Source of the DNA: Patescibacteria group bacterium
Lineage (GTDB): Bacteria; Patescibacteriota; Minisyncoccia; UBA6257; 2-01-FULL-56-20
Assembly (NCBI GenBank): GCA_038077975.1
Contig: JBBUGM010000011.1
Coordinates: 22,038 to 86,037 of the forward strand
Direction of reading: 5' to 3'
DNA: 64,000 nucleotides
Of the stretch, positions 2,893 to 25,620 are shown in pieces (position 1 is the stretch's first letter; each line of letters opens with the position of its first letter). Both the position numbers and the translations under genes were made by a program. Under the pieces are notes generated by a model. That model saw only the letters and a program-made list of their open reading frames with translations. It was not told where the DNA came from and ran no database searches.

Positions 2893-4164
2893 TTACTCCA
2901 AGCCCTCGTATTCGCGAACCGTCAGTTGCGAATTCACCTGTCGCATCGTCTCCAAAGCCACGGCGACGACGATGAGCAAAGCAGTTCCGGAGATCGTCAA
3001 AACCTGAACTCCGGTAAGCTGCTGAATTATAATAGGCAGGATGGCGATGAGTCCCAAAAATGTCGCGCCAAAGAAAGTGATGCGATTCACGATGCCGGAG
3101 AAAAATGCAGTGGTTGACTCGCCGGGGCGCACGCCCGGGACAAAACCGCCACTCCTCTGGAGATTTTTTGAAACTTCCTCCGGATTGAAAGTTATCGCGG
3201 TGTAAAAATAGGTAAAAACGAACACAAGGCCAAAGTAAAAAATGCCGTAGAAAAGCTGGTTGTTTAAAAATCGCGTAATAATATCGTTCAGGCGCACGGC
3301 AATGTCCGGAGAAACAACCGACGCCGCCTGAGCGATAAATTGCGGAAATAAAAGCACGGAGATTGCGAAGATAAGGGGTATCATGCCCGCTTGGTTGATC
3401 TTCAAGGGCAAATAACTTTGCGCGCCGCCGTACATTTTCATCCCGCGAACGCGTTTCGCGTAAGCAACAGGAATTTTCCTCTCTCCTTCATTCAAATATA
3501 CGACTCCGGCAATGACTAAAACCGCGATGATAACGAAGCCGATGTAGGTTGGAAGCAAACCTGGCGTGTACGAAGCAAGCGCAAGCCCTACGGCGCCGGG
3601 AATACCCGCAACAATACCAGCCAATATCAAAAGCGAAATGCCGTTGCCTATTTTCTGCTCGCTGATGAGCTCGCCAAGCCACAAGGCAATCATCGAGCCC
3701 GCCGTGATAACGAGAACGTTGCGCACCATATCAAAGAGATCCGGCCGGTCGATAACGCCTTGGGAGATAAGCAACGTGAGGAATCCATAGGCCTGAACGA
3801 AGGCCAGGGGCACGGTTAAAAGACGCGACCATTGGTTGAATTTGGCCTTGCCGCGCTCCCCTTCTTCGTAATACATCTCCTTGAATTTGGGGAAGATGAT
3901 GGTCAAAAGCTGCATGATGATGGTCGCCGTGATATAGGGGCCGACTCCCAGCATAACGACGGACAAATTCGAAAGTCCGCCGCCGGAGAAAAAGTTCAAA
4001 AATCCTAAGAATTGGTTGGAGCCGAAATATTGACTCAAACGGCTTGCGTCGATGTCAGGTATCGGCACCGCGGCCAAAAGACGATAAAAAACCAAAAGCC
4101 CGGCGACAAAAAGAACCTTGTTACGCAGGTCGGGGATTTTGAAAATTTGTAAAAATCTTTGCAT
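2893..4164 (-). CDS. secY: preprotein translocase subunit SecY
   Basis: 423-aa polytopic membrane ORF. Position after rplO is the conserved spc order. Confidence 0.95.
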   Translation of the reverse strand: MQRFLQIFKIPDLRNKVLFVAGLLVFYRLLAAVPIPDIDASRLSQYFGSNQFLGFLNFFSGGGLSNLSVVMLGVGPYITATIIMQLLTIIFPKFKEMYYEEGERGKAKFNQWSRLLTVPLAFVQAYGFLTLLISQGVIDRPDLFDMVRNVLVITAGSMIALWLGELISEQKIGNGISLLILAGIVAGIPGAVGLALASYTPGLLPTYIGFVIIAVLVIAGVVYLNEGERKIPVAYAKRVRGMKMYGGAQSYLPLKINQAGMIPLIFAISVLLFPQFIAQAASVVSPDIAVRLNDIITRFLNNQLFYGIFYFGLVFVFTYFYTAITFNPEEVSKNLQRSGGFVPGVRPGESTTAFFSGIVNRITFFGATFLGLIAILPIIIQQLTGVQVLTISGTALLIVVAVALETMRQVNSQLTVREYEGLE

Positions 4165-4172
4165 GATTTTTT

Positions 4173-4243
4173 ATCAACGAATAGCGAATTTTGTTTCGAA
4201 TTTACGAATTCGTAGATTCGCAGTTTATTCGTTATTCGCTGAT
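4173..4243. repeat. intergenic imperfect palindrome, ACGAAT/ATTCG word family
   Basis: ATCAACGAATAGCGAATT ... ATTCGTTATTCGCTGAT. The right arm overlaps the rplO stop. Confidence 0.8.
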
Positions 4244-4681
4244 GACGCGCCCCCCAGCGCGTTCGATCTTCGCCTTCGCGCTCTTCGACACCTTTAACCC
4301 CTCCACGCGAATCGGCATGCCCATCTCTCCCTCGCCTAAAATTTTAACATCACCGCTAAAGCGGCGCGGCAAAAGCCCCGCCTCGAGAAGGAATTTCTTG
4401 TCGAGCGTAAATTCGCCTTTTTTCGCATGAACTTTTATTACTAAAGACAGGTCCTTCAAATTAAATATCTTCGACGCTGGCGAGGTCGGCTTATTCGGGC
4501 CACTTTTCCCAAGGCCACGTCTCTTCGGAATACGGATGATAAGGTCGCGCTCTGCCGGCCTAATGCGCCTCCCGGAACGCGACTTCTGTCCCTTAGTTCC
4601 TCGGCCCGAGGTCGTACCGCGCTTGCCGCCGCGCCCGACGCGCTGAGCCCGCTTTTGAATTGATGATAGATTGTGCAGCAT
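4232..4681 (-). CDS. rplO: 50S ribosomal protein L15
   Basis: 149 aa with a Gly/Arg/Lys-rich N-terminus (GRGGKRGTTSGRGTKGQK). Follows rpsE directly. Confidence 0.9.
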   Translation of the reverse strand: MLHNLSSIQKRAQRVGRGGKRGTTSGRGTKGQKSRSGRRIRPAERDLIIRIPKRRGLGKSGPNKPTSPASKIFNLKDLSLVIKVHAKKGEFTLDKKFLLEAGLLPRRFSGDVKILGEGEMGMPIRVEGLKVSKSAKAKIERAGGRVISE

Positions 4682-4685
4682 TATA

Positions 4686-4826
4686 AAACTCTAAATTCTA
4701 ATTTCTAAATCCTAAACAAACTCGAAATTCAAATATCTAAATTTTAAACGTTTGTTATCTTGAATTTTGATTATTGGGATTTGTTTCGGATTTCGGATTT
4801 CGTGCTTCGGATTTCAGATTCTTTAG
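4686..4826. repeat. imperfect palindrome, TCTAAAT/ATTTAGA word family
   Basis: The left arm is in the rplO-rpsE spacer. The right arm is the 3' end of rpsE. Confidence 0.7.
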
Positions 4827-5273
4827 GGCTTCGATCGTCGCCAAAGCATTCGTCAGTTTGTTCGGAGTTCGGCCAAGGCATTTTGCCGTGGCATCCTTCA
4901 CGCCGGCAAGAGCGAGCACGAACCTCACTGCGCCTCCAGCCCGAAGCCCGTGGCCGTCCGAGGCGGGCTTGATCAAAACCTTTGCGGCGCTGTATTTCGC
5001 GAAAACCTCATGTGGAATAGTTCGCTGGTCTTTGAGGCCGATCTTGATGATCTTTTTCTTCGCGTCTTCTTTCGCTTTGCCGACCGCCTGGGCAACATCT
5101 ATTCCTTTTGCGATACCCACCCCAACCCTGCCCTTGCCGTCACCCAAAACAATGGTCACCCTGAAACGAAATCTTTTTCCGCCGGCGACAACACGCGTGA
5201 CCCTGCGGAGGTCAAGAACTTTTTCCTTGAATTCTTCTCTTTTGGCCACTCTTGGTGAACGATCTCTTCTCAT
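4755..5273 (-). CDS. rpsE: 30S ribosomal protein S5
   Basis: Core RVTRVVAGGKRFRFRV. Start taken at MRRDRS (M21 of the ORF). The C-terminal tail KSEARNPKSETNPNNQNSR is encoded by repeat words. Confidence 0.9.
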   Translation of the reverse strand: MRRDRSPRVAKREEFKEKVLDLRRVTRVVAGGKRFRFRVTIVLGDGKGRVGVGIAKGIDVAQAVGKAKEDAKKKIIKIGLKDQRTIPHEVFAKYSAAKVLIKPASDGHGLRAGGAVRFVLALAGVKDATAKCLGRTPNKLTNALATIEALKNLKSEARNPKSETNPNNQNSR

Positions 5274-5279
5274 TGTTTT

Positions 5280-5514
5280 ATTATTCACCCGCAAGAATAC
5301 CCGCCCGCTTGCGGGCGGGATGAATTGCGGCACGTGAATAATAACCCCGCCCTATTTGTGGCAGAAATTGAGCAATTGCAATATTAGAGCCGTAAGGCGG
5401 CTTCGCCTTTAAGTGATGCATATGCTTAGATTTTACAGCAAATAGGGCGGGGTGAATAACCGCAAGACCGCAGAGCGGTTTTGGATACCGCACCGCTCTG
5501 CGGTGCGGTTATTC
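5280..5514. repeat. three abutting long hairpins (5280-5342, 5344-5453, 5454-5514)
   Basis: Perfect stems: ATTATTCAC/GTGAATAAT plus CCCGCCCGC/GCGGGCGGG; ACCCCGCCCTATTTG/CAAATAGGGCGGGGT; GAATAACCGCA/TGCGGTTATTC plus CCGCAGAGCGG/CCGCTCTGCGG. Confidence 0.85.
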
Positions 5515-5860
5515 ATATATTTAATCCGCCGCTTCGCGCCCCTTCGGCTAGAGCTCTCACGCGGCCGTGATAACGGTAGTGCCGACGGTCAAAAACCGCT
5601 TGCGAAATTCCGAGTTCTTTCGCTTTTTTGGAGATTGATTCTCCGACTTTGCGCGCCTGGTCCGTTTTCGAACCCTTCACGCCTTTGCTCGAGGCATTGG
5701 CAAGGGTGTGTCCCTTCACATCATCTATCAATTGTACAGAAAGGCCCCTATTGCTCCTCAAAACCGCGAGCCGTGGGCGCACGGCGGAACCAGAAATCCG
5801 CGCCCTTACACGAACGACACGCCTTGCCTTTTTTGCATTAAATGATTTTTTTTGGTTCAT
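5513..5860 (-). CDS. rplR: 50S ribosomal protein L18
   Basis: 115 aa. RPRLAVLRSNRGLSVQLIDD is the typical L18 signature. Operon position fits. Confidence 0.9.
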   Translation of the reverse strand: MNQKKSFNAKKARRVVRVRARISGSAVRPRLAVLRSNRGLSVQLIDDVKGHTLANASSKGVKGSKTDQARKVGESISKKAKELGISQAVFDRRHYRYHGRVRALAEGARSGGLNI

Positions 5861-5977
5861 CCCGTTAGAAGCAGATCGCGATCAAGGAAATCTGCAAAGT
5901 TTTTAATTAGTTATAAAGATTATCACTTTTATGTAATATTTTCTAGCCCGCGCCACGCGATCGCGGCTTCTAACGGG
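5861..5977. repeat. long-range hairpin in the rplF-rplR spacer
   Basis: CCCGTTAGAAGC (5861-5872) pairs with GCTTCTAACGGG (5966-5977). The loop is AT-rich. Confidence 0.8.
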
Positions 5978-5992
5978 ATTCATGTTGCGTTA

Positions 5993-6541
5993 TTAAGCAA
6001 CGGCAGCGGCACCGGCCTTCTTACCCGCCTTCCTTCTCACTATTTCACCGCGATACCTGATGCCTTTGCCCTTGTACGGCTCCGGCTTTTTGTAAGCTCT
6101 AATGTCCGCCGCAACCTGGCCCACAAGCGCCCTGTCAGCTCCGGACACTTTGATCGTGTTCTTTTCGATCTCTACGGCCACGCCTTCGGGTATCGTGAGG
6201 CGCACTGGCACGGCATAGCCCAAATGCAAAACCAAATTCTTCCCCTCCACTTGAGCGCGGAAACCAACTCCTTCGATATCCAACACTTTCAAAAAATTCT
6301 CTTTGGCGCCGCGGATCGCGTTTTGAACCAAAGCCCAAGTCGTTCCCAAGATCGCCTTATCTTGTTTGCGTTTGGCTTCGAACTTAACCCAAACCGAACC
6401 TTTGTCTGCGACAACATCGATGCCAGGAAAGAGTTTTACTTTCCTTTCCGTTTTGGCGCCTTTAACCAGCAAAAAATCTCCATTTTGCGCAATGGTTACG
6501 CCTTCGGGCAATTTGATAGGTTTTCTTGCTAAACGACTCAT
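5993..6541 (-). CDS. rplF: 50S ribosomal protein L6
   Basis: 182 aa starting MSRLARKPIKLPEGV. Operon position fits. Confidence 0.95.
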   Translation of the reverse strand: MSRLARKPIKLPEGVTIAQNGDFLLVKGAKTERKVKLFPGIDVVADKGSVWVKFEAKRKQDKAILGTTWALVQNAIRGAKENFLKVLDIEGVGFRAQVEGKNLVLHLGYAVPVRLTIPEGVAVEIEKNTIKVSGADRALVGQVAADIRAYKKPEPYKGKGIRYRGEIVRRKAGKKAGAAAVA

Positions 6542-6543
6542 GT

Positions 6544-6915
6544 TTACCAGATTTCGAATAAATACTCGCCGCCAATCTTTTGTTTTCTTGCGTCTTTGTT
6601 GCTCAATATACCCTTCGGCGTTGAATAAACTCCCCAGCCATAACCGTTCTTCACCGCTTTGATATTCCGATAATCAACATAGATGTGCCGACCCGGCTTG
6701 CTGACAAGTTTGATGCCTCTTATCTCGTTTTGATTCGGCAGTTTTATCTCCAGAAAATTCTTTTTGCCTACCGTCTTTTTCTGGACGTCTTTGATGTGAC
6801 CGGTCGCCGAAAGCACTTGGGCAATGGCAAAATCCATCTTAGAAAACGGAGCAAGAACGGAACTCTTTCCTGCGGCCTCGGCATTTTTAATTCTTGGTAA
6901 TAGATCGTAGTACAT
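6544..6915 (-). CDS. rpsH: 30S ribosomal protein S8
   Basis: 123 aa ending GGEYLFEIW. Operon position fits. Confidence 0.95.
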   Translation of the reverse strand: MYYDLLPRIKNAEAAGKSSVLAPFSKMDFAIAQVLSATGHIKDVQKKTVGKKNFLEIKLPNQNEIRGIKLVSKPGRHIYVDYRNIKAVKNGYGWGVYSTPKGILSNKDARKQKIGGEYLFEIW

Positions 6916-6921
6916 TGGTTT

Positions 6922-7107
6922 TTACCAGCTTGCTTTTTTTACTCCTGGTATCTGTTGCATGGTCGCCATTTCCCGGAAGCAAATACGGCAGAGATTGAAG
7001 TCCCTCATGTATCCCCTCTTCCTGCCGCAGCGAAAACAGCGCCGCACTATCCGTGTGGAAAATTTTGGTTTCTTTTTACTGCGCGCGATTACAGATTGTT
7101 TTGCCAT
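6922..7107 (-). CDS. rpsN: 30S ribosomal protein S14, type Z (zinc-binding)
   Basis: 61 aa with CFRCG...CRIC cysteine pairs. Confidence 0.9.
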
Positions 7108-7118
7108 ATCAATGTTAA

Positions 7119-7226
7119 AGTTCTAATTTCTAAATTCTAAATTCTAAAAATCCCTTCGGGTTTAAAATTTTGAAATTTGATATTTGTGATTTGTTTAGAA
7201 TTTAGGATTTAGGATTTTTCAGCGGA
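7119..7226. repeat. imperfect palindrome, TCTAAAT word family
   Basis: TCTAAATTCTAAATTCTAAA ... TTTAGAATTTAGGATTTAGG with a central CCCTTCGGG hairpin. The right arm encodes the rplE C-terminus. Confidence 0.8.
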
Positions 7227-7726
7227 ACCCCGAATGATCGATATTTTTCCATCGCCTTTTCTTTATTCTTAACTTTAGGCACAACGGTTACGCCCAAAGA
7301 AAATGTAGTGGGCGATAGCTCGGGACTGACCTCGGAAAAAACAAGTTGTTCCCTGAGTCCGATGTTCAGTGAACCTCCATCGTCTACCGCCGACAGTTTG
7401 ATCCCGCCAAAATCTTTTACCCGCGGCAATACCATTTTAATCATCCGCTCGAAAAAATCAACCATCCTTTTCCCGCGCAGGGTAACTTTAAGGCCGACAA
7501 CTTGCCCCTGCCTGGTTTTGAAGCCGGCAATGGACTTCTTGGCCGGACGTGATGCCGGTTTTTGGCCGGAAATAAGAGCAACGTCGCGCATGACTTGGGG
7601 CAGGATTTTTTCCTCAAAATTCGGCTGAGAACTCAAACGGCCGATGCCAACATCAATAACGATCTTTTCGAAAAAGCTGGCTATGCCCTTACCGTGGTCG
7701 GATGTGTGTTTAGTGGTTTTATGCAC
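7202..7726 (-). CDS. rplE: 50S ribosomal protein L5
   Basis: 174 aa. Operon position fits. The C-terminal codons (KNPKS) are encoded by a repeat arm. Confidence 0.9.
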   Translation of the reverse strand: MHKTTKHTSDHGKGIASFFEKIVIDVGIGRLSSQPNFEEKILPQVMRDVALISGQKPASRPAKKSIAGFKTRQGQVVGLKVTLRGKRMVDFFERMIKMVLPRVKDFGGIKLSAVDDGGSLNIGLREQLVFSEVSPELSPTTFSLGVTVVPKVKNKEKAMEKYRSFGVPLKNPKS

Positions 7727-7826
7727 GTTCGCTGTAGCTCACACACTAATTACCGCTAATATGGAACGAATAAACGCTAACATATTCGTGGTAATTCGTG
7801 TTTGTATTCGTGGTTATTCGTGTGCG
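7727..7826. repeat. imperfect palindrome, CACAC/ATTCGTG word family
   Basis: CACACACTAATTACCGCTAATATG ... CATATTCGTGGTAATTCGTGTTTG. Confidence 0.8.
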
Positions 7827-8132
7827 CTATATATTAGCGCCGCACTTCTTGCAATATCTGACCTTTTTGCCGCCTTCGCTACGAGATCCTACTCGCGCGG
7901 CTTTTTTACAACTCCCGCAAATAAGCATCAATGAAGATGCGTGCACGGGCCGCGGCACGTTAACTACTTCACCTTTCTGCCCCTGCCGCTTTGGCTTGGA
8001 GCGCTTCTTGTAAAGATTCAACCCTTCAACGGTCGCTCTGTCGTCTTCCGGAAAAACGCGCAAAACCTTGCCGACTTTACCGCGGTCCTTACCCGAAAGA
8101 ATTTTTACATTGTCGCCTTTGCGTATTTTCAT
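7827..8132 (-). CDS. rplX: 50S ribosomal protein L24 with a C-terminal Cys4 ribbon
   Basis: KOW motif MKIRKGDNVKILSGKDRGK. CGSC...CKKC at the C-terminus. Confidence 0.9.
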   Translation of the reverse strand: MKIRKGDNVKILSGKDRGKVGKVLRVFPEDDRATVEGLNLYKKRSKPKRQGQKGEVVNVPRPVHASSLMLICGSCKKAARVGSRSEGGKKVRYCKKCGANI

Positions 8133-8217
8133 GGAGTTCGGCTACGAAATACGAATTTCTTACGAATATACTAAATCATTTTCGTATATTCGTACTTTTT
8201 CGTAATTTAGTAGAGAA
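8133..8217. repeat. imperfect palindrome, ACGAAT word family
   Basis: TACGAATATAC-12 nt-GTATATTCGTA core, with imperfect outer arms. Confidence 0.8.
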
Positions 8218-8586
8218 TTACACGATTTCTTCCGCCATCGTCATTAATTTCTCAAAACCTTTTTCTTTGAGCTCGCGCGGCATCGGCCCGAAAACTCTGG
8301 TTGCCATGGGTTCTTTCTTCGCGTCAACAAGAACAACCGCGTTTTCATCAAAACGGATGTACGAGCCGTCTTTTCTCCTCATCGGCGCCCGCCCGCGAAC
8401 CAAGACCGCTTTCACAATGTCCTTTTTCTTCACCGCCTTCCTCGGCTCCGCCACCTGGACGGAAGCAACGATGATATCCCCGATCCTCGCGTACCTGCGC
8501 CTCGTTCCGCCTAAAATCCTAAAACAACGCACTATCTTTGCGCCTGTGTTGTCCGCTACTTTTAATATGGCTCGTTCTTGGATCAT
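8218..8586 (-). CDS. rplN: 50S ribosomal protein L14
   Basis: MIQERAILKVADNTGAK. Start taken at M8 of the ORF. Confidence 0.95.
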   Translation of the reverse strand: MIQERAILKVADNTGAKIVRCFRILGGTRRRYARIGDIIVASVQVAEPRKAVKKKDIVKAVLVRGRAPMRRKDGSYIRFDENAVVLVDAKKEPMATRVFGPMPRELKEKGFEKLMTMAEEIV

Positions 8587-8680
8587 TGCTAACGCGAGCG
8601 ATGCCAAACTACGAATCTCATGCGAATCTACGAATTAATTTTCGAGGCATTCGCATGTATTTGTAGTTTTGAATCGCAAT
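8587..8680. repeat. imperfect palindrome containing a copy of the 32-nt MPR motif (8646-8677)
   Basis: CCAAACTACGAATCTCATGCGAAT ... ATTCGCATGTATTTGTAGTTTTG. Confidence 0.8.
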
Positions 8681-8935
8681 TTACGTTTTCCCCACGATCC
8701 GCCACCGCTTATCTTTCGAAAGCGGCCGCGTTTCCTCAATAACGACTTTCTCGCCGACATGATATTCGTTCTTTTCATCATGGGCTTTGAATTTCTTCGA
8801 TGTCTTAAAATATTTCTGATATTTGGAATGCTTTTTCAAGCGCTCAATCAAAACAACCCTGGTTTTCGCCATTTTTTCGCTAACAACAGTTCCTGTCAAC
8901 CTTCTTTTTTTACTTGTTTCTTTGTTCATGGCCAT
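8681..8935 (-). CDS. rpsQ: 30S ribosomal protein S17
   Basis: 84 aa. [14 protein letters not shown] is the S17 pattern. Operon position fits. Confidence 0.9.
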
Positions 8936-8940
8936 AATTT

Positions 8941-9141
8941 TTATGATCTCGCTGCTTCGTTAATAAAAGTAGATATCCGAGCGATATTTCTTTTCAAGGC
9001 ATGCAATTCCTTTACGTTCTTCACTTTACCAGCCGCCAAATTGAATTTCAGCTCGCGTAAACGTTCACGGCTTTCTTTTGCGAGCTTTTGGAGCTCGGGC
9101 AACGGCTTACTTTTTAATTCTTGTAGCTCGCGTTTTTTCAT
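8941..9141 (-). CDS. rpmC: 50S ribosomal protein L29
   Basis: 66-aa helical ORF between rplP and rpsQ. Confidence 0.85.
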
Positions 9142-9238
9142 ATTTGAATCGCTCGCACACCAAGTACCACTAATATAGAACGAATAAACGCTAATATATT
9201 CGTGGTGCTTCGTGTTTATATTCGTGGTTATTAGTGTG
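9142..9238. repeat. imperfect palindrome, CACAC/ATTCGTG word family
   Basis: CACACCAAGTACCACTAATATA ... TATATTCGTGGTTATTAGTGTG. Confidence 0.8.
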
Positions 9239-9649
9239 TCATTTACTAATGACTATGCTTTTGAACGGTAATTTATGCCCGGCAAGCCGCAGCGCCTCTT
9301 CGGCTATGTTGCGTTCGACGCCGTCGATCTCAAAGATAACTCTCCCCGGACGAACAGGGAAAACATAGTGGTCCACAGAGCCCTTGCCTCCTCCTAGGGT
9401 CTTTTCCGGCGCCTGCTGTGTTATCGGCTTATCGGGGAAAACGCGTATCCAAAGCCGGCCGCTCCTTTTAAGGTGCCCGGTGATGGCGCGGCGCGCCGCC
9501 TCGATTTGGCGGGAGTTTAGCCACGACGCCTCTGTTGCCTTGAGGCCGAACTGGCCGAAGCTGACATTGATCCCTCGGGTCTCAACAAGGCGCCTGCGAC
9601 TTCTACCTTTCTGCCACTTTCTGTGTTTTACTTTCTTTGGTATTAACAT
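9239..9649 (-). CDS. rplP: 50S ribosomal protein L16
   Basis: MLIPKKVKHRKWQKGR start. 136 aa. Confidence 0.95.
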   Translation of the reverse strand: MLIPKKVKHRKWQKGRSRRRLVETRGINVSFGQFGLKATEASWLNSRQIEAARRAITGHLKRSGRLWIRVFPDKPITQQAPEKTLGGGKGSVDHYVFPVRPGRVIFEIDGVERNIAEEALRLAGHKLPFKSIVISK

Positions 9650-9726
9650 GTTCGCTATTGCTCACACACTAAGTATCACGAATATGGGACTAATTACCAC
9701 TAATATTCGTGGTGCTTCGTTTCATA
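9650..9726. repeat. imperfect palindrome, CACAC/ATTCGTG word family
   Basis: CTCACACACTAAGTATCACGAATATG ... AATATTCGTGGTGCTTCG. Confidence 0.75.
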
Positions 9727-10410
9727 TTAGTGATGTTTAGTGTTGTCTTCGCGCGCGAAGACCTCGCCTTTATATATCCAGATCTTGATGCCGATCGTGC
9801 CGTATGTGCAGAATGCCGTAGATTGCCCGTAATCGATGTTTGCCCGCAGCGTTTGCAAGGGCAATGCACCCCTGCTCAACCATTCCCTTCTTGCGATCTC
9901 ACCGCCATCTAACCGGCCGGAAAACCTTATCTTCGCGCCTTTAACTTCCTTGTACTGCATGATCGATTCAAGGTACTTTTTCATTGTTCTTCGAAAGGTC
10001 ATCCTTTTTTCTAGGTCCCAGGCGATCTGCTGAGCGATGTATTGAGCCGAAATTTCCGTGCGCTTGAGCTCTTCGACGTTAACACTGATACTTGCGGCAG
10101 TTTTTGTTTTCCTCAAGCCCTTAAGCACTTCGTTTATCGCTTTGCTTAGGTCTTCAATGCCTTTGCCACCTCGGCCTATGATGAGTCCCGGTTTTGCGGC
10201 CTTGATCAAAATTCTCACACTGCTGGCCGTCCTTTCTATCTCGATCGAAGAAATACCTGCGAGGCCGATCCTCTCGTTGATCACTTTCCTAATTGCCTCG
10301 TCCTCTTCGAGATGCTTGCCAAAAATCTTCCCGCGCGTCGGAAACCAGCGCGAAGCCCACTTCACGTTTATGCCCAACCTAAAAGATTTTGGATTTATTT
10401 TGTGTCCCAT
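9727..10410 (-). CDS. rpsC: 30S ribosomal protein S3
   Basis: MGHKINPKSFRLG start with a KH domain. 227 aa. Confidence 0.95.
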   Translation of the reverse strand: MGHKINPKSFRLGINVKWASRWFPTRGKIFGKHLEEDEAIRKVINERIGLAGISSIEIERTASSVRILIKAAKPGLIIGRGGKGIEDLSKAINEVLKGLRKTKTAASISVNVEELKRTEISAQYIAQQIAWDLEKRMTFRRTMKKYLESIMQYKEVKGAKIRFSGRLDGGEIARREWLSRGALPLQTLRANIDYGQSTAFCTYGTIGIKIWIYKGEVFAREDNTKHH

Positions 10411-10436
10411 CGTTCGCTATAAACTCACTTAACCGA

Positions 10437-10940
10437 CTATACTGCTTTACGCCTAGTGAATAATCTCTTAAAGAACCCTGGCCTTTTCGGTTTTTGTGTT
10501 TCTCTCGCAACTTCAACTTTCTTTTCCTTCCTAGGACGCCTTGCCTCTCCCGGAGGAAGTTTCACTTTCTTAGGCACAACTATCTTAAAGCGCGGCGCTT
10601 TCGGATTCACGTTTTCGGAAAGAACCATTGTTATGTGGCTCATTTTTTTCTGGATCGGGGTCGCCATGCCTTTCGCCCTCGGCAAAAACCGCTTGAGCAT
10701 CGGCCCTTGGTCAACCTCGAGCTTCTCAATGTAAAGCTTCTCGGAATCGAGCTTCTGGTTATTTTTCGCGTTGGCGATCGCCGAACGCAAAAGTTTTAAG
10801 ACCGCCGGAGCCGGGCGCTTTCTCAAAAGCATCAGTTGAGCTTCGGCATCGTTAACGGAGAGGCCCTTCACAAGGTCGGTAACCAGCCGCACTTTACGGG
10901 GTGCGACTCGCAGATAATTAAGTTTTGCGATTTGCTTCAT
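10437..10940 (-). CDS. rplV: 50S ribosomal protein L22 with a basic C-terminal extension
   Basis: Core LRVAPRKVRLVTDLVKG. Start at MKQIAKL. The upstream in-frame extension is repeat-derived. Confidence 0.9.
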   Translation of the reverse strand: MKQIAKLNYLRVAPRKVRLVTDLVKGLSVNDAEAQLMLLRKRPAPAVLKLLRSAIANAKNNQKLDSEKLYIEKLEVDQGPMLKRFLPRAKGMATPIQKKMSHITMVLSENVNPKAPRFKIVVPKKVKLPPGEARRPRKEKKVEVARETQKPKRPGFFKRLFTRRKAV

Positions 10941-11087
10941 GGTGATGATGCTAATTTGCGAATTTATCCTAATAATGCGAATGTCGCCGTAGCTCAATAA
11001 TGCAAATATACGAATGGGTCAATTAGTATATTGGTATGCAGCGCTAAAGCGCCATTAGTATCATTCGCACGCATTTGTATATTGGTA
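10941..11087. repeat. about 140-bp dispersed quasi-palindromic repeat, copy 1
   Basis: Near-identical to 12259-12399. Fills the rpsS-rplV spacer. Confidence 0.9.
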
Positions 11088-11432
11088 TTACGCTTTTTTT
11101 TCTTTTGCCGGTGCAACAGCCGCCGCGGTAGCGGCTCCCGCGCCCTCGGCAGACTTCATTTCGAGTTCCTTTTGCATCTTACCGCCGTGGCGCGTAAATT
11201 TGCGCGTCGGCGAAAACTCTCCCAGGCGATGGCCAACCATGTCCTCTGATACCCTTACATCAACAAAAATTTTGCCATTATGGACCGCGAACGTATACCC
11301 CACCATTTCGGGCGAGATCTCCGACGCGCGCGACCATGTTTTAATGGACGCACCCTCGCCGGGCTTCGCTCTGCCAATCTTTTTTATGATGTCCGGGGCG
11401 ACATAAGGCCCTTTTTTAGAACTGCGCGACAT
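11088..11432 (-). CDS. rpsS: 30S ribosomal protein S19 with an Ala-rich C-terminal tail
   Basis: [11 protein letters not shown] start and HNGKIFV core. 114 aa. Confidence 0.95.
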
Positions 11433-11436
11433 GATT

Positions 11437-12258
11437 TTATTTCCTGCGTTTGATAATTAGGACGCTCGACCACTTTTTCCTGTTTCTCGTCTTGTGTCCG
11501 CCGGTAACTTTGCCCCATTTCGTCTTCGGCTTCCGCGTGCCGCGCTGCGTGCGGCCTTCGCCGCCGCCATAGGGGTGGTCAACCGGGTTCATAACCTTAC
11601 CGCGCACGGTCGGACGCACGCCGAGCCATCTTGAGCGGCCCGCTTTGCCAATCGTCACTAAATTGTGTTCCGGATTCGAAACCTGCCCGATCGAAGCAAA
11701 GCAATCCCAAAGCACGCGGCGCACTTCTCCGGAAGAAAGCTTGATGTCCGTATATCCGTCCGCGTTCGCCAAAACTTCGGCGTAAGAACCGGCGGAGCGT
11801 GCGAGTTTCCCACCCATTTCCGGCGACATTTCTATGTTGTAGACCTGATAACCGATGGGGATGTTCTTCAGGCGCAAGCGATTGCCGACCCTAAGCGGCG
11901 CGGAATCCGCCGAAACCAATTTATCCCCGACCTTAAGTCCATGCGGGGCCAAAATGTAATGCTCTCTTGCGTTCGGATAAAGAACGAGTGCGATGAAAGC
12001 GGTGCGGTAAGGATCATATTCCAAAGTTTTCACGACAGCTTCCTGGTTAAGTTCAAGCTGCTTAAAATCGATGACCCGATAAAGTTTCTTGTTGCCGCCG
12101 CCCTGGTGGCGCATCGTTATCCTGCCCTGGGAATTCCTTCCGGAATTGCTCTTAAGTCGGCGCAAGAGCGACCGCTTCGGCCGCACACCGCTTAAGACGC
12201 CGTAGTCAACTACGGTCATGCTTCGGCGCGATGGAGTTGTTGGGGAAAATTGTTTCAT
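11437..12258 (-). CDS. rplB: 50S ribosomal protein L2
   Basis: Contains [13 protein letters not shown] and [12 protein letters not shown]. Start at MKQFSPT. Confidence 0.95.
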
Positions 12259-12399
12259 AATTCTAATCTGCGAATTTATACTAATACTGCGAATGTCGCT
12301 GTAGCTCAATAATACAAATATACGAATGGGTTAATTAGTTTATTGGTATGCTGCGCTAAAGCGCCATTAGTATCATTCGCGCGCATTAGTATATTGGTA
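12259..12399. repeat. about 140-bp dispersed repeat, copy 2
   Basis: Fills the rplW-rplB spacer. Confidence 0.9.
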
Positions 12400-12669
12400 T
12401 TACGCTATGTCTATCTTCTGCCCTTCCTTTAGTGTCACTATCGCTTTTTTATAACCCGGTTGGCGGCCGCGCACAGATCCCACGCGCTTACGCTTCGAGG
12501 GACGATTCACAATATTCACGTCGACCGGATCAACTTTATAAATGGATTTTATCGCTTTTTTTACTTCCGGTTTGGTCGCGTCGGGCCTCACAATAAAAAC
12601 ATACTTCCTCTCTCCGCTCAAGAAAGAAGATTTTTCCGTAACTAATGGTTTTTTGATGACGTCGTACAT
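12400..12669 (-). CDS. rplW: 50S ribosomal protein L23
   Basis: 89 aa. MYDVIKKPLVTEKS start. Confidence 0.9.
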   Translation of the reverse strand: MYDVIKKPLVTEKSSFLSGERKYVFIVRPDATKPEVKKAIKSIYKVDPVDVNIVNRPSKRKRVGSVRGRQPGYKKAIVTLKEGQKIDIA

Positions 12670-12674
12670 TATTG

Positions 12675-13319
12675 TTAACGATTATAACGTTTGCCGATCG
12701 TCGCGAGCGCCTCTTTTTCAACGAAAACACTTTTGTAATTCGCAGTATCGTAAATGTTAAGAGAATTAGCGTGAACGGCTTTTGTTTTCTGCAAATTGGA
12801 CGCGGCGCGCGTGATCGATCTATTGCCTTCGCCGGCGACCAAAAGCACATCGTATCTTTTGTCTTTTGCCGGCACCGCCAAAATTTTCCGAAGCGCGGCT
12901 GCTAAAATTTTTGTTTTTGGCGTTTCGAGCTCGAGGGAAGAAAATACCTTAACGTTGCCGTCCTTGAATTTCTTCGAAAGAACGCTCGCCAAGGCCTGGT
13001 TCCGCATCTTTTTATTAATTTTCTGCGAATAATCCCTTTCCTTATTAGGACCGTGGGATTTGCCTCCGCCAACCCATAAAGGCGAACGGATCGAGCCGTG
13101 CCGAGCGCGGCCAGTGCCCTTCTGCCTCCATGGTTTTCGGCCTCCGCCGCGGACTTCGGCACGTGTCTTCGCGTGCGCCCATGGACGCCTGCGGTTCGCT
13201 AGCTGTGCTCGCAAAACTTGGGCTACCAAAGCCGGCCTCCACTTCGCGCCGAAAACACCCTCTGGAAGTTCCGTTTTCTCCACAACTTTATTTTCCAAAT
13301 TATAAACGTCGGTTTGCAT
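12675..13319 (-). CDS. rplD: 50S ribosomal protein L4
   Basis: Contains GGGRKPWRQKGTGRARHGS. Start at MQTDVYN (M10 of the ORF). Confidence 0.9.
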   Translation of the reverse strand: MQTDVYNLENKVVEKTELPEGVFGAKWRPALVAQVLRAQLANRRRPWAHAKTRAEVRGGGRKPWRQKGTGRARHGSIRSPLWVGGGKSHGPNKERDYSQKINKKMRNQALASVLSKKFKDGNVKVFSSLELETPKTKILAAALRKILAVPAKDKRYDVLLVAGEGNRSITRAASNLQKTKAVHANSLNIYDTANYKSVFVEKEALATIGKRYNR

Positions 13320-13460
13320 AATGTTTAAATCACAAATTACAAGCACCAGATCACAAACAATATCTAATTTCGAAATTCTAAATTCAAAATGTTTTGGTCA
13401 TTTGGATTTTATATTTTGAATTTGTTTGGGATTTGTTATTTGGAATTTGAAATTTTTGCC
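13320..13460. repeat. imperfect palindrome, AAATTC/GAATTT word family
   Basis: The arm ...CTAAATTCAAAAT pairs with ATTTTGAATTTG.... The right arm encodes the rplC C-terminus ISNSK. Confidence 0.7.
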
Positions 13461-14008
13461 ACCTCTACAATTCCGCCTCTCGCTCCAGGAACGGCTCCGT
13501 GCAAGAACAAAAGATTTTTGTCTTTATCGACACCAACAACTTTCAATCCTTTAATCGTGACCCTTTCAACTCCCATGTGTCCTGCCATCCGCCTTCCCGG
13601 CACGACCCTCTGAAAGGCGGTGCTGCCGATCGAACCAGGCGCCCTGAAACGATTTTTTTGCCCGTGCGTCTTTGGACCGCCGGCGAAACCGTGCCGTTTC
13701 ACGACTCCCTGAAAACCTCTGCCCTTCGAAGTACCGCTCACACGCACAACATCACCTTCCTTAAAGGCCTCGACAGAGATAGCGTCGCCTTTTTTGAACT
13801 GTCCAATATCAAAAGTGGCTGGCCATTTGCTCCTGAATTCTTTTTTGTGCTTGCCGAAAGAAACCCGAACGGCTTCGTAGCCGTCCTTTTCTTTCGTACG
13901 CGAAGCGGAAACTTTGTTCGGCTCGGCTTGAAGCACCGTGACAGGGATCACGTTCTGGTCTTTCCAGACCTGGCTCATCTTTAATTTTTTCGCCAAAATA
14001 AAACTCAT
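13436..14008 (-). CDS. rplC: 50S ribosomal protein L3
   Basis: 190 aa with FQGVVKRHGFAGGPKTHG. The C-terminal ISNSK is encoded by a repeat arm. Confidence 0.9.
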   Translation of the reverse strand: MSFILAKKLKMSQVWKDQNVIPVTVLQAEPNKVSASRTKEKDGYEAVRVSFGKHKKEFRSKWPATFDIGQFKKGDAISVEAFKEGDVVRVSGTSKGRGFQGVVKRHGFAGGPKTHGQKNRFRAPGSIGSTAFQRVVPGRRMAGHMGVERVTIKGLKVVGVDKDKNLLFLHGAVPGARGGIVEVAKISNSK

Positions 14009-14100
14009 GTTTTCTTTTCGCAGACCGACGCGGACTTCACGCAGACTAACGCGGAAAATTTCTGCGTAGTTCTGCGTGCGTTCTGCGTAAGTCTGCGTTT
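14009..14100. repeat. imperfect palindrome, CGCAGA/TCTGCG word family
   Basis: CGCAGACCGACGCGGACTTCACGCAGACTAACGCGGA ... TCTGCGTAGTTCTGCGTGCGTTCTGCGTAAGTCTGCG. Confidence 0.8.
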
Positions 14101-14104
14101 ATGA

Positions 14105-14134
14105 CACAAAAACGACCCGGTCTTAGCCCGGGTC
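14105..14134 (-). terminator. intrinsic terminator
   Basis: 7-bp GC stem plus a T5 run on the minus strand. Confidence 0.65.
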
Positions 14135-14234
14135 GCCTGGCTAACACTCCAAAACCTTTATTCGGTTATCGAAAAATAACCATTATTTAGCTTAGTCCCG
14201 CACCGTCCGCCGTCGGCGGTCTGGTGCGCGGATT
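14105..14234 (-). ncRNA. candidate about 130-nt structured leader or sRNA ending in an intrinsic terminator
   Basis: Starts about 7 nt after the -10. Contains the hairpins CGCACC..CCGCC-GAC-GGCGG..GGTGCG and GGTTAT-TTTTCG-ATAACC. Ends GACCCGG-GCTAAGA-CCGGGTC-GTTTTTG. Confidence 0.45.
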
Positions 14235-14240
14235 ATGTAG

Positions 14241-14269
14241 ATGATAGCAAAACGGCGCAACAAAGTCAA
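14241..14269 (-). promoter_or_regulatory. sigma70-type promoter TTGACT-17-TATCAT between rpsJ and rplC
   Basis: Minus-strand read: TTGACTttgttgcgccgttttgcTATCAT. Confidence 0.6.
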
Positions 14270-14322
14270 TGCGAATAGGGCTGGCGGACACAAAACCAAG
14301 AAATAGTCCTTATTTCCTAAGG

Positions 14323-14352
14323 AAAAACCGTCCTTCTGCGGGGCGGTTTTTT
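14323..14352. terminator. candidate bidirectional terminator immediately after the rpsJ stop
   Basis: AAAAACCGTCC-loop-GGGGCGGTTTTTT. The minus-strand version has one A.C mismatch. Confidence 0.45.
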
Positions 14353-14685
14353 CTAAACCATCTTTATTTCGACATCGACTCCGGCCGGAAGATTTAGATT
14401 GCTCAGTGACTCGATTATCTTCTGCGAGGGATTCAATATCTCGACGAGACGTTTATGGACTCGGAGTTCAAACTGTTCGCGCGAGTCCTTGTCGATAAAG
14501 GCCGAGCGATTCACTGTGTAGCGCTTTATCTCGGTTGGAAGCGGGATCGGACCTGCGATCTTCGCGTCGTTCCTTTCCGCTGCCTCAATTATCTGGCGCG
14601 AAGAAGTGTCGATTAGTTTGTGATCGTACGACTTAATGCGCAAGCGCAATTTCTGCGGAATGTCCGCTTCTTTCTTTTTTGCCAT
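14353..14685 (-). CDS. rpsJ: 30S ribosomal protein S10
   Basis: 110 aa with [14 protein letters not shown]. Directly downstream of tuf. Confidence 0.95.
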
Positions 14686-14757
14686 GGATTACTAAATTAC
14701 GAATTTCTTACGAAAATACGAATTCGTACTATTCGTACTTATTCGTAATTTCGTAAC
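14686..14757. repeat. imperfect palindrome, ACGAAT word family
   Basis: Centre TACGAATTCGTA with imperfect flanking arms. Fills the tuf-rpsJ spacer. Confidence 0.75.
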
Positions 14758-15957: not shown

Positions 15958-16022
15958 TTTTTTATTTTTTTATGTTTGAAACGTTTTTAAACCAACCGCC
16001 TTTCGACTAAGCGTTAGTTTAG

Positions 16023-16050: not shown

Positions 16051-16075
16051 GCGGCGCGCGTAAGATATTCTAAAT

Positions 16076-25618: not shown

Positions 25619-25620
25619 GG

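Follow-up and report, generated by a model that had tools for sequence, protein, structure and literature searches.

The wide junctions between the S10/spc ribosomal-protein genes of this Patescibacteria genome are probably insertions of non-autonomous, fold-back DNA repeats similar to MITEs and REPINs. Families of these repeats have spread into the very short stop–start junctions of co-directional genes within one Paceibacteria clade, most densely in the S10/spc cluster, and some copies have replaced the final codons and stop of the upstream gene, thereby giving its protein a new tail.

Expanded junctions in the S10/spc cluster

The sequence comes from a Paceibacteria-like metagenome-assembled genome (MAG) of the Patescibacteria, a groundwater bacterium with a tiny genome. 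All S10/spc genes of the window (the whole 64,000-nt stretch analysed) are on the minus strand. Their order on that strand, with the intervening spacers in nt, is:

EF-Tu (72) S10 (344) L3 (116) L4 (5) L23 (141) L2 (4) S19 (147) L22 (26) S3 (77) L16 (97) L29 (5) S17 (94) L14 (85) L24 (100) L5 (94) S14 (6) S8 (2) L6 (132) L18 (239) S5 (73) L15 (67) SecY

Fifteen of the 21 junctions of this ordinarily compact operon are expanded, to 67–344 nt, confirming an earlier note on this DNA that had described them as unusually wide. The same junctions measure 1–40 nt in the relatives L007, L011, L013, L015, L016, L019 and L021, and the spacers from L3 to SecY total 1510 nt in the window versus 223 nt in one relative. 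The expansion is patchy, being found in the window and in L009, L014, L017, L018 and L020. The S3 protein of L007 is 74% identical to that of the window, yet its junctions are short.

The idea that the contig is chimeric, or that assembly or binning created the spacers, has nothing in its favour except the risk that any repeats bring to MAGs, and its probability is negligible: five independent assemblies from different samples match the window at 99.98–100% identity over 1.2–8.3 kb, spacers included, and the same families occur in unrelated studies. The spacers are real, and not the assembly artefacts that, according to the earlier note, would have refuted it. Since these five assemblies were all identical and displayed no insertion polymorphism within the species, mobility is deduced only from comparison between genera.

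Architecture of the palindromes

Each sequence was compared with its own reverse complement, using 100 dinucleotide shuffles as a control. Thirteen of the 15 expanded spacers had palindrome z scores of 4–14, with none of the 100 shuffles scoring as well, so that the palindromic character previously claimed for the spacers survived the comparison. Of the 52 intergenic regions in the whole window, 58% exceeded z = 3, versus 1% of coding controls. Each word element is a single long imperfect inverted repeat, the arms of which consist of three to five tandem copies of a 5–8-nt core word, spaced 7–12 nt apart; TRF detected arm periods of 7, 9 and 10. Arm mismatches, which had been described as mostly transitions, are transitions in about half of the cases (315 transition-type versus 327 transversion-type, with a scoring scheme biased towards transitions). 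The base of the hairpin is close to both genes: relative to the upstream stop it is found at about −25 to +15 nt, and relative to the downstream start at −5 to +17 nt, in most of the 47 significant cases. The elements in the ribosomal-protein cluster are listed below (no strand is assigned unless given):

4171–4245: family A word palindrome, L15–SecY junction; words RCGAAT/ATTCGY; ends ATCARCGAATARCGAAT ... ATTCGYTATTCGYTGAT
4686–4826: family B palindrome, S5–L15 junction; TCTAAAT/ATTTRGA heptamers
5274–5512, minus strand: three consecutive GC-rich hairpins filling the L18–S5 spacer; not word-built, a different kind of element
7119–7226: family B palindrome, L5–S14 junction; palindrome z = 5.5; encodes the L5 tail (NPKS)
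7737–7826: family C palindrome, L24–L5 junction; CACGAAT words versus ATTAGTG; palindrome z = 5.2
8133–8217: family A2 palindrome, L14–L24 junction; CTACGAAATACGAAT ... ATTCGTATTTCGTAG; sense RNA z = −4.4
8587–8680: family F CGAAT-word palindrome, S17–L14 junction; single copy in the data examined
9151–9238: family C palindrome, L16–L29 junction; palindrome z = 6.4
9657–9743: family C palindrome, S3–L16 junction; 5' arm overlaps the S3 end
10945–11109: family D element of CGAAT and CTAAT words, about 150–165 nt, S19–L22 junction
12257–12422: family D element, L23–L2 junction; palindrome z = 8.6
13320–13460: family B2 palindrome, L3–L4 junction; ACAAAT/CAAAT-type heptamers; encodes the L3 tail
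14009–14100: family E palindrome, L3-operon 5' leader; ACGCAGA/TCTGCGT, period 10
14686–14757: family A2 palindrome, EF-Tu–S10 junction; sense RNA z = −5.8

Palindrome z scores for other word elements of the list are 8.8 (4171–4245), 6.0 (8587–8680), 13.7 (9657–9743), 8.6 (10945–11109), 7.4 (13320–13460) and 6.3 (14009–14100). Not every spacer is of the word type: two contain instead the terminal inverted repeat (TIR) element at 5861–5977, described below, and the hairpins at 5274–5512 (MFE −120 kcal/mol, z = −11.6), in which inverted repeats were also detected and the middle hairpin (ACCCCGCCC...GGGCGGGGT) resembles 21076–21182. The family E element had been counted as a spacer inside an operon; it belongs instead to the L3-operon 5' leader, preceded by a terminator and a promoter (a hairpin plus T-run after S10 and a promoter-like site at 14269–14241). 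Words similar to those of family E follow S10 in L009.

Several arms enter coding sequence, as the earlier note had said. The 5' arm of 4171–4245 supplies the final L15 codons (ISE) and stop, and 4686–4826, which has a TRF period of 7 in both arms, encodes the S5 C-terminal extension SEARNPKSETNPNNQNSR. This S5 tail of 15–17 aa is absent from 10 relatives, and is the substantial case; the L5, L3 and L15 tails amount to just 2–4 aa. At the other end, the 3' tail of 7737–7826, GAGCTACAGCGAAC, finishes at the L5 start codon.

Further elements are located outside the cluster, again with no strand assigned:

17175–17271: family A copy separating EF-G from the gene that follows; tRNA 3'-end fragment in the loop
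44788–44866: family A copy; palindrome z = 6.9
48634–48741: family G CGAAT/CTAAT-word palindrome; palindrome z = 9.9; homologues in L017, L020 and L062
51003–51122: family B copy; palindrome z = 8.0
55676–55934: composite palindrome of 259 nt with an inner core of family B2 flanked by outer CTAATT words; 124 paired positions, palindrome z = 10.2
60444–60597: family D copy, inverted relative to 12257–12422; palindrome z = 8.2

Nesting or loop insertions are seen at 17175–17271 and 55676–55934. The sequence at 40103–40186, previously listed as a palindrome, comprises a single arm only (palindrome z = 0.2).

Dispersed families and their placement

The window contains at least eight families of dispersed repeats, with homology between distant sites extending over whole elements. 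Identity between copies in the window is 90–95% for family D, 79–89% for C, 71–80% for A, 82% for A2 and 72–87% for B/B2. Thus, 10945–11109 is 90% identical to 12257–12422 and 91% to 60444–60591, and 12257–12422 is 95% identical, in inverted orientation, to 60445–60593; this 150–165-nt family D (10945–11109, 12257–12422, 60444–60593) was missing from the earlier list of families. In family C, 7737–7826 is 89% identical to 9151–9238, and 9657–9743 is 79% identical to 9148–9237. In family B, 4686–4826 is homologous to 51012–51069, 40111–40156 and 7160–7217, and 7119–7226 is 77% identical to 51020–51106; the B2 element at 13320–13460 is 74% identical to 55740–55862 and has homologues in L044 and L046. 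The A2 element at 8133–8217 is 82% identical to 14690–14755.

Other genera (S3 60–74% identical to that of the window) also harbour these families, mostly at other junctions. The family A element at 4171–4245 is homologous to 44788–44866 and 17175–17271, as well as to sequences in L014, L018, L032 and L291; family A is found at L22–S3 in L014 and at L14–L24 in L018. Family A2 occupies L23–L2, L2–S19 and S8–L6 in L014 and S3–L16 in L017, with 8133–8217 85% identical to L014 13988–14060 and 14686–14757 92% identical over 61 nt to L014 8830–8887. Elements like D are present in L014, L017 and L020, and L014 has a family B element at the same L5–S14 junction as the window. A single junction can hold different families in different genomes, and both orientations relative to transcription occur: the D copy at 60445 is inverted relative to that at 12258, and family A is opposite in the window versus L014 and L018. 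This combination of families 71–95% identical, recurrence at different junctions in other genera, empty junctions in some close relatives and both orientations favours the REP/MITE-like reading that the earlier note had offered among others.

We considered the possibility that the spacers were generated in place, independently at each junction and without mobility, with slippage expanding the tandem repeats, on the pattern of cyanobacterial STRR heptamers, and template switching making the palindromes. The tandem arms with periods of 7–10 nt and the differing numbers of words among copies are consistent with such a process, and longer copies resemble internal duplications (L020 L6–L18 versus L14–L24). 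However, loops, linkers and non-palindromic tails are common to distant sites and genera. Independent local expansion cannot yield such whole-element identity, which largely refutes generation in place and leaves it very improbable.

In the window, every palindrome assigned to a word family is located between co-directional genes, and none was found in its divergent or convergent spacers, which hold perfect terminator-like hairpins or promoter-like palindromes. In a wider set of 438 spacers, long hairpins are present at 82 of 320 co-directional junctions versus 13 of 118 others (p = 0.001). Occupancy is denser in the ribosomal-protein cluster (15/21) than at the window's remaining co-directional junctions (9/38; p = 7e-4). 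Such dense occupancy, together with the absence from divergent and convergent spacers, is not predicted for a purely neutral parasite. In family A, fixed A/G mismatches are kept across genera at 13 of 14 positions; host function could also explain the conservation of words and mismatches.

One such function, in line with the protein-binding reading of the earlier note, would be the binding of a sequence-specific DNA- or RNA-binding protein to the words, arranged as inverted arrays of sites, in nucleoid organisation or regulation. The three to five copies of one core word per arm at 7–12-nt spacing would suit an array, and the conservation of the words across genera beyond mere pairing, with the fixed mismatches, suggests that the arms are read as sequence. 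Nevertheless, we regard this as improbable: at least eight unrelated vocabularies of like architecture would each require a protein of their own, no candidate emerged, and positions differ between genomes.

Sense-strand RNA

A functional RNA role is the most substantial of the alternatives, although still an unlikely one: the hairpins would be processing sites (RNase III being one example), mRNA stabilisers or translational-coupling devices for adjacent ribosomal-protein genes, kept by selection in this clade, possibly as domesticated mobile repeats. The confinement of the window's word palindromes to transcription units, between co-directional genes and most densely in the ribosomal-protein operon, the stop and start codons closely flanking the hairpin base, and the conservation across genera are all consistent with such a role. 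Several hairpins are also very stable as sense RNA, with z of −4 to −7 (4173–4243, 8133–8217, 8587–8680, 9650–9743, 14009–14100 and 14686–14757). Among the listed elements, 4171–4245 folds at −25.3 kcal/mol (z = −6.4), 8587–8680 at −33.1 kcal/mol (z = −4.8) and 14009–14100 at −44.3 kcal/mol (z = −6.8), and 9657–9743 has z = −5.6.

However, occupied junctions and families vary among genomes, close relatives lack the elements altogether, and copies occur in both orientations. The A/T-rich families reach a sense RNA z of only −0.7 to −3.5; families B (4686–4826 is weak as RNA) and B2 are marginal or not significant, as is one D copy (10945–11109, z = −1.05). On the sense strand of six operons there are 101 G.U pairs versus 214 A.C mismatches, and in a wider set of 68 elements 240 versus 343 (p = 2e-5), with 42 elements leaning to A.C versus 18. 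The elements thus pair worse as sense RNA than as antisense, and no selection for sense-RNA pairing is visible. The RNA processing or stability reading of the earlier note is weakened by these counts and by the several elements that are not significantly stable, while keeping a minor share of the probability.

No Rfam family was matched by the elements, and the searches as a whole agree with the earlier failure to recognise any published repeat class. The word elements lack terminator features, and terminators were rejected, as were CRISPR or TIGR arrays; the note was right that these are not CRISPR.

Returning to mobile fold-back repeats, the lack of terminator features suggests that the elements would be transcribed within the operon mRNA. 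They may be tolerated there because Shine-Dalgarno sites are rarely used in these genomes and because self-pairing would hold the upstream stop and downstream start about 0–25 nt apart at the hairpin base; we infer that tolerance arises through this compaction. If the elements are thus co-transcribed and tolerated, the palindrome and conserved words are most likely requirements of a putative mobilising machinery, and probably not needed for mRNA function. A search of 84 kb of the source contig and roughly 2 Mb from related loci revealed no transposase, no RAYT and no longer element sharing these ends, and no target-site duplication was visible for the word palindromes.

The start-codon element

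The L6–L18 junction holds an element of another kind:

5861–5977, minus strand: start-codon element (SCE), CCCGTTAGAAGCCGCGATCGC ... GATCGCGATCTGCTTCTAACGGG (termini also given as CCCGTTAGAAGC...GCTTCTAACGGG), with an A-rich variable interior

The SCE abuts the L18 ATG (5860–5858), with a duplicated ATGAA(T) on its 5' side (5983–5978). An ATG directly follows 77 of 84 metagenomic copies, always in the same orientation, and 60 of the 84 have a duplicated ATGN(N), usually the start codon plus two bases. Removal of the SCE and duplication leaves sequence collinear with orthologous empty sites. The SCE is a classical element with TIRs and a target duplication, separate from the word palindromes. 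It would insert at ATGRA-like sites and survive only where the site is a start codon.

Comparison with known systems

Integron attC sites are imperfect palindromes of 57–141 nt that follow each gene. The SCE shares their conserved ends, variable interior and fixed polarity; unlike attC, it has the core motifs in inverted order (GTTAGAA at the 5' end, TTCTAAC at the 3' end), no integrase was seen, and the genes beside it keep the universal ribosomal-protein order. Cyanobacterial STRR heptamers and small dispersed repeats are intergenic tandem heptamers and tiny nested repeats. Tandem heptamers in intergenic DNA and very small repeats nested in one another are found here as well, but in another phylum, with other sequences, and as inverted pairs of arrays that spread as whole elements. 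Drosophila foldback (FB) transposons have long inverted terminal repeats built of short tandem subrepeats, and the whole element can fold back, as here; the resemblance is in form only. FB elements belong to eukaryotes, measure kilobases and carry target duplications.

Some repeats enter or extend ORFs, such as the Rickettsia palindromic elements (Delihas 2011, PMC3184786). In both cases palindromic repeats provide coding sequence, here the S5 tail and the short L5, L3 and L15 tails, but only C-terminal ends are affected here and no internal in-frame insertion was seen.

REPs and REPINs, associated with RAYT transposases (Bertels & Rainey 2011, PMC3116915; Di Nocera et al. 2013, PMC3733652), are likewise extragenic hairpin repeats, about 100 nt long and free of target duplication. 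A genome has several families of them, located mainly between ORFs transcribed in one direction, and they show long evolutionary persistence. Unlike them, the elements described here have no unpaired GTAG or CGTC tag, their arms are tandem words rather than 20–40-bp palindromes, and no RAYT was seen in the 84 kb of contig sequence. To our knowledge, REPs filling ribosomal-protein operon junctions have not been reported.

Correia/NEMIS, ERIC and RUP elements are examples of MITEs. The word palindromes depart from bacterial MITEs (definition of Delihas 2011, PMC3184786) in several ways: they show no target duplication, tandem words make up the inverted repeat that spans the entire element, the search revealed no parent IS, and the S10/spc operon of a genome of roughly the 1-Mb class is saturated. 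The likeness lies in a length below about 300 bp without an ORF, in terminal inverted repeats, in dispersed intergenic multi-copy families and in long stem-loops formed upon transcription, some MITEs also being fused to gene 3' ends (PMC3184786); the SCE, like MITEs, is flanked by direct repeats.

Expanded Spacers in the Ribosomal-Protein Cluster

Patescibacteria are considered to be extremely streamlined, and few bacterial gene arrays are as tightly packed and conserved as S10/spc. Translation of the long minus-strand ORFs gave a complete S10/spc cluster, the order of which was confirmed by the Pfam domains that the public record assigns to its genes: EF-G, a 292-aa protein, EF-Tu, S10, L3, L4, L23, L2, S19, L22, S3, L16, L29, S17, L14, L24, L5, S14, S8, L6, L18, S5, L15 and SecY. 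L30 is missing from the S5–L15 interval. From EF-Tu to SecY the spacers measure 72, 344, 116, 5, 141, 4, 147, 26, 77, 97, 5, 94, 85, 100, 94, 6, 2, 132, 239, 73 and 67 nt. Their sum from L3 to SecY is 1510 nt, compared to 223 nt in L007, one of the numbered loci from relatives, a roughly seven-fold difference. Hairpin repeats fill 15 of the 21 junctions. Most genes, in the whole window as in the relatives L007, L014 and L015, have no Shine-Dalgarno motif upstream, and in all four ACC or CACC often closes a short spacer just before the ATG.

The earlier note had described palindromic spacers throughout these operons, and this was borne out by local alignment of each spacer with its own reverse complement, using 100 dinucleotide-preserving shuffles as the control. 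The palindromes reached z = 4–14 in 13 of the 15 expanded spacers, with no shuffle as good, and z exceeded 3 in 58% of the 52 intergenic regions of the window, compared to 1% of coding controls. The spacers are not assembly artefacts, since the window is matched at 99.98–100% identity over 1.2–8.3 kb by five further assemblies made from different samples. Most spacers are indeed word palindromes, that is, long imperfect inverted repeats with arms of tandem short words, but those at 5861–5992 and 5274–5512 carry other kinds of element. The supposed palindrome at 40103–40186 is a lone arm, and 14009–14100, previously placed inside the operon, is part of the L3 operon leader, 3' of the post-S10 hairpin with its T-run and of a promoter-like site (TTGACT-17-TATCAT).

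Anatomy of the Word Palindromes

Each element is one long imperfect inverted repeat, in which an arm consists of 3–5 copies of a core word with short linkers between them. Tandem Repeats Finder (TRF) gave arm periods of 7, 9 and 10. Sensitive self-BLAST of the window showed that copies are homologous over the whole element and do not just have words in common. One family, D, had been missed before.

Families of word palindromes (core word; spacing; identity between copies in the window)
Family A: RCGAAT; 7–12 nt; 71–80%
Family A2: TACGAA; 8–12 nt; 82%
Families B and B2: TCTAAAT and ACAAAT-type; 7 nt; 72–87%
Family C: CACGAAT, paired with ATTAGTG; ~10 nt; 79–89%
Family E: ACGCAGA; ~10 nt
Family D: 150–165 nt at 10945–11109, 12257–12422 and, inverted, 60444–60593; 90–95% over ~150 nt

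The family ends read ATCARCGAAT..., CACACGAAT... and TACCAATATAC..., and family C has a non-palindromic tail, GAGCWAYAGCGAAC, which abuts the start codon in three cases. Nesting or loop insertions are seen at 17175–17271 and 55676–55934; the loop of the former, a family A hairpin, contains a tRNA 3'-end fragment, GGTTCGACTCCGCTCACCA (T-arm, acceptor and CCA; 17211–17229, plus strand). No ORF fits inside the word palindromes. Some arms had been thought to encode protein tails. This is true of S5, which has a real extension of 15–17 aa that is lacking in 10 relatives, but the tails of L5, L3 and L15 amount to only 2–4 aa. The family D copies appear to provide the final GCG codon of S19 and L23 as well as their TAA stop. 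A motif of ~40 nt, 88–92% identical, is common to 8639–8677 (overlapping the palindrome 8587–8680), 25582–25623 and 39156–39194, all at or near gene ends.

Within the window, word palindromes were found only between co-directional genes, whereas divergent and convergent spacers have perfect terminator-like hairpins or promoter-like palindromes instead. In the wider set of 438 spacers, long hairpins occurred at 82 of 320 co-directional junctions and 13 of 118 others (p = 0.001). Occupancy was also higher in the ribosomal-protein cluster (15/21 junctions) than elsewhere in the window (9/38; p = 7e-4). The base of the hairpin mostly lies between about -25 and +15 nt from the upstream stop, and between -5 and +17 nt from the downstream start.

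Distribution among Relatives

The S3 protein of the window is 100% identical to that of the Patescibacteria group bacterium MAG GCA_964361345.1 (CAYIAC010000001.1) from Hainich groundwater. The runner-up among 5.8 billion proteins was 74% identical, no relative above that S3 identity being present in the protein database, and the named matches were Minisyncoccia, Paceibacterota or Liptonbacteria. Genes in the ribosomal-protein loci of relatives were mapped with the proteins of the window, and their junctions were tabulated. Expanded junctions were found in the window's own genome and in L009, L014 (Ca. Liptonbacteria), L017, L018 and L020 (S3 60–74% identical); L007 (S3 74% identical), L011, L013, L015, L016, L019 and L021 had no expansion.

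Which junctions are occupied varies between genomes, and one junction may bear different families in different genomes. Family A2 (CTACGAAATACGAAT...ATTCGTATTTCGTAG) has three copies in L014 and one in L017, with one pair 92% identical to 14686–14757 of the window. Family A also occurs in L014, L018, L032 and L291, families B/B2 in L014, L044, L046 and L328, and D-like elements in L014, L017 and L020. Alignment showed that the elements of the window occupy junctions that are spacers of 1–20 nt in tight relatives, in places replacing the last codons and the stop codon; empty junctions were seen in L007, L011 and L015. Insertion polymorphism, for which the earlier note had proposed looking, was not seen within the species, where the five other assemblies are identical to the window. 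Because presence is patchy, the junctions differ and the families are shared, this distribution means that the elements would have arisen by insertion and spread, and not as a local expansion or an ancient fixed structure.

The Start-Codon Element

A separate element with terminal inverted repeats (TIRs), here called the start-codon element (SCE), lies in the L6–L18 spacer.

Start-codon element in the window
5861–5977, minus strand: CCCGTTAGAAGCCGCGATCGC at the 5' end, GATCGCGATCTGCTTCTAACGGG at the 3' end, ~70 variable A-rich bases between

Its terminal stems are 12 + 7 bp, with a variable interior in which no ORF fits. The 3' end falls exactly at the L18 ATG, and ATGAAT on the 5' side (to 5983) duplicates the start codon and two bases. 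All 12 complete copies with both ends in the window's genome, L009, L017 and L018 have the same arrangement; other genes preceded by the SCE in these genomes are L2, S19, S3, L29, S8, SecY, L4 and L23. In L018 and L044 there are also variants whose stems differ. The first seven copies are 100, 101, 100, 122, 114, 117 and 117 nt long.

A 21-mer from the SCE was found in at least 120 metagenomic stretches. Among the matches listed, 77 of 84 two-ended copies directly precede an ATG, mostly one that opens an ORF of >50 codons; 60 of the 84 have the ATGN(N)+T duplication, and several of the remainder carry a decayed upstream duplicate (AAGAAT or ATAAAT, for example). Relative to the gene, and again among the matches listed, 77 copies were forward and 2 clearly reverse. 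Removal of the SCE and its duplication from L009 leaves a sequence collinear with the empty S14–S8 junction of the window and L007, and the same operation likewise restores collinearity between L216 and L316, two metagenomic stretches.

Several other identities for the SCE were rejected. The best sigma-70-like scores were 8.19 on the sense and 8.23 on the antisense strand, with the -10 box at no fixed position, which argues against an outward promoter. A uORF ending at the TAA of TTCTAACGGG, as in termination–reinitiation, is in frame in only two of the first seven copies. A viral origin was discarded on the 21-mer, which had no match in IMG/VR; the IMG/VR matches of a 14-mer, TACGAATATACGAA, look like chance among those listed. 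An integron attC site opens with RYYYAAC, closes with GTTRRRY and has an integrase in its neighbourhood. The SCE has the opposite order (GTTAGAA 5', TTCTAAC 3'), and there is no integrase in 84 kb, so that an attC or cassette site was also rejected. We read the SCE as a TIR element that would duplicate 4–5 bp of its target at ATGRA-like sites; purifying selection would then have removed all insertions but those at start codons.

DNA-Level Repeat or RNA Structure

Families A and D occur in both orientations relative to transcription. In 47 significant hairpins from six ribosomal-protein operons, the sense strand had 101 G.U pairs and 214 A.C mismatches. The wider set, comprising 68 non-SCE hairpins between co-directional genes from the window's genome, L009, L014, L017, L018, L020 and the metagenomic stretches L213–L332, gave 240 G.U and 343 A.C (p = 2e-5), A.C predominating in 42 elements and G.U in 18. 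The antisense strand would therefore fold better, matching a slight sense-strand excess of A over T and C over G. Transitions make up only about half of the arm mismatches, and not most of them, as had been stated. Within the window, the ribosomal-protein cluster shows this A.C excess, and elements outside it lean the other way; candidate causes are a skewed composition, a bias of insertion, and selection against strong hairpins in the mRNA.

Stability as sense RNA varies: it is very high for some elements (z = -4 to -7), in line with a functional RNA, but not for families B and B2 or for one D copy (z = -0.7 to -2.7), despite highly significant symmetry of the DNA. Across genera, two fixed positions in the terminal stems of family A carry an A/G mismatch in 13 of 14 cases, which suggests that each arm may be kept as a sequence, much as the two ends of a mobile element are. 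An intrinsic terminator would show, on the sense strand, a GC-rich stem with a U-run behind it. This identity was rejected for the word palindromes, which had no U-runs after the hairpins and no terminator calls on the sense (minus) strand; terminator-like sites overall numbered 29, compared to 20.6 +/- 4.4 in shuffles, and were not enriched. Known RNA families were rejected as well: in Rfam, tRNAs alone reached gathering scores, and at E <= 1 the region 4000–17400 gave one chance miRNA-like match (29.9 bits against a threshold of 100). Taken together, the two orientations, the A.C excess, the uneven RNA stability, the lack of likeness to terminators or Rfam families and the fixed mismatches speak for a repeat at the DNA level more than for an mRNA structure under selection. 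A functional RNA role, perhaps gained at a later stage, is a less likely but serious rival.

Other Elements in the Window

The remaining elements, listed below, are of other kinds.

5274–5512 and 21076–21182: GC-rich, non-word hairpins (ACCCCGCCC...GGGCGGGGT)
34878–34975: tRNA-Ala(TGC) inside a 20-bp inverted repeat, CGATAGTTCAGGTGGGCCCA / TGGGTCCACCTGAACTATCG
26110–26303 and 27579–27759: 190-nt GC-rich inverted repeat, 90% identical
26016–26112: hairpin with 47-bp arms
914–949, 47061–47100 and 58958–58993: near-perfect palindromes ACTATCATTATA-N-TATAATGATAGT, TATAAT on both strands
15970–16263: 97-aa ORF between the 292-aa gene and EF-Tu
16103–16076, minus strand: perfect TTGACA-16-TATAAT
16103–16167: perfect 20-bp hairpin

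Three GC-rich hairpins in a row fill the L18–S5 spacer (-120 kcal/mol, z = -11.6), inside which the public record calls a 70-aa ORF with no Pfam match; L017, L018 and L020 have related hairpins tailed by GGTGCTCAA. The repeat around tRNA-Ala(TGC) adds ~13 bp to the acceptor stem and resembles a processing stem. The 190-nt repeat brackets two genes, one for an XRE-type HTH protein (68 aa) and one for a 333-aa protein without a Pfam match, and adjoins tRNA-Lys and the 47-bp-arm hairpin; this may be an integrated element. The near-perfect palindromes may be bidirectional promoters or operator sites. The 97-aa ORF lies in an interval uncalled in the public record and is probably not a gene; with its perfect promoter motif and perfect hairpin, the region is probably the tuf promoter and leader.

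Discussion

On balance, we think that fold-back, non-autonomous DNA repeats of several families have colonised the operon junctions. Folding would bring the stop and the next start back into proximity, and weak dependence on Shine-Dalgarno sequences would make the insertions tolerable. The co-directional bias, the density in ribosomal-protein genes and the position of the hairpin base are none of them predicted by a purely neutral parasite. The elements could conceivably do more than be tolerated as parasites. If, in these Patescibacteria poor in Shine-Dalgarno sites, the base that joins a stop to the next start acted as a coupling or shunting device, allowing terminating ribosomes to re-initiate across a folded spacer of 70–250 nt, the concentration inside operons, and in the ribosomal-protein operon above all, would be explained; the 77:2 orientation of the SCE suggests a mechanism that senses the direction of transcription or translation and not a plain DNA target. 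Such a device, together with CCCGTTAGAAGC...GCTTCTAACGGG being a true start-codon-homing element, strikes us as quite improbable.

An autonomous partner for the fold-back repeats was sought but not found: there were no long-range pairs of family ends in ~2 Mb of loci, a Pfam scan of 10 unannotated ORFs gave no transposase domains, and the annotated genes in 84 kb of the 267-kb source contig included no transposase domain and no RAYT (Y1 transposase) gene.

Filling of S10/spc junctions recurs in several genera. Either tight stop–start coupling is unneeded for ribosomal-protein stoichiometry here, or the folded spacers preserve it, and the genomes with and without elements constitute a natural experiment on translation initiation in a hard-to-culture phylum. 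The repeats create new protein tails and may mislead gene callers, as perhaps with the 70-aa ORF. The SCE, compact, abundant and unusually precise in insertion position and polarity, could mark true start codons in these genomes and lead to a new insertion mechanism.

Comparison with Known Systems

Literature searches on repeats in Patescibacteria/CPR gave nothing relevant, in keeping with the earlier note, which had recognised no published class; nothing was found on the sequence of the SCE either, which is apparently undescribed. The tandem-word inverted arms are reminiscent of eukaryotic foldback elements and cyanobacterial heptamer repeats. That the palindromes are not CRISPR stands: instead of one invariant direct repeat with a unique spacer after each copy, they have 7–12-nt tandem words in inverted arms. 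TIGR arrays, which are present in parasitic bacteria, have two alternating 8–12-nt repeats and 9-nt spacers in a ~36-nt unit, and adjoin a Nop-domain Tas gene (PMC12045711). A TIGR-Tas array was rejected, as the TRF periods are 7–10 with no 36-nt unit, and the neighbours are ribosomal-protein genes.

The closest kinds are MITEs (PMC3184786) and REP/REPINs (PMC3116915, PMC3733652). Like MITEs, the elements have TIRs and a short core without a transposase gene, the word palindromes being inverted over their whole length, and they are dispersed in multiple copies, orthologous sites being filled in some genomes and empty in others, precisely empty in the case of the SCE. The flanking target duplication of MITEs is seen as ATGN(N) in the SCE (60/84 among the matches listed); flank comparison of families A and A2 showed none, as in REP/REPIN or other single-strand transposition. 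An autonomous IS with the same ends was not found in ~2 Mb of loci or 84 kb of the source contig. REPs are 20–40-bp imperfect palindromes, one end of which carries an unpaired tag, GTAG or CGTC; the word palindromes have neither the tag nor the REP unit structure, and the CTAC...GTAG of A2 and of 8587–8680 consists of two parts that pair with each other. REPs lie mainly between unidirectional and convergent ORFs (PMC3733652), so the location of the word palindromes fits an element of REP type, although their density in the S10/spc operon is unusual. What makes the system notable is the site of its elements and the start-codon-specific element that accompanies them.
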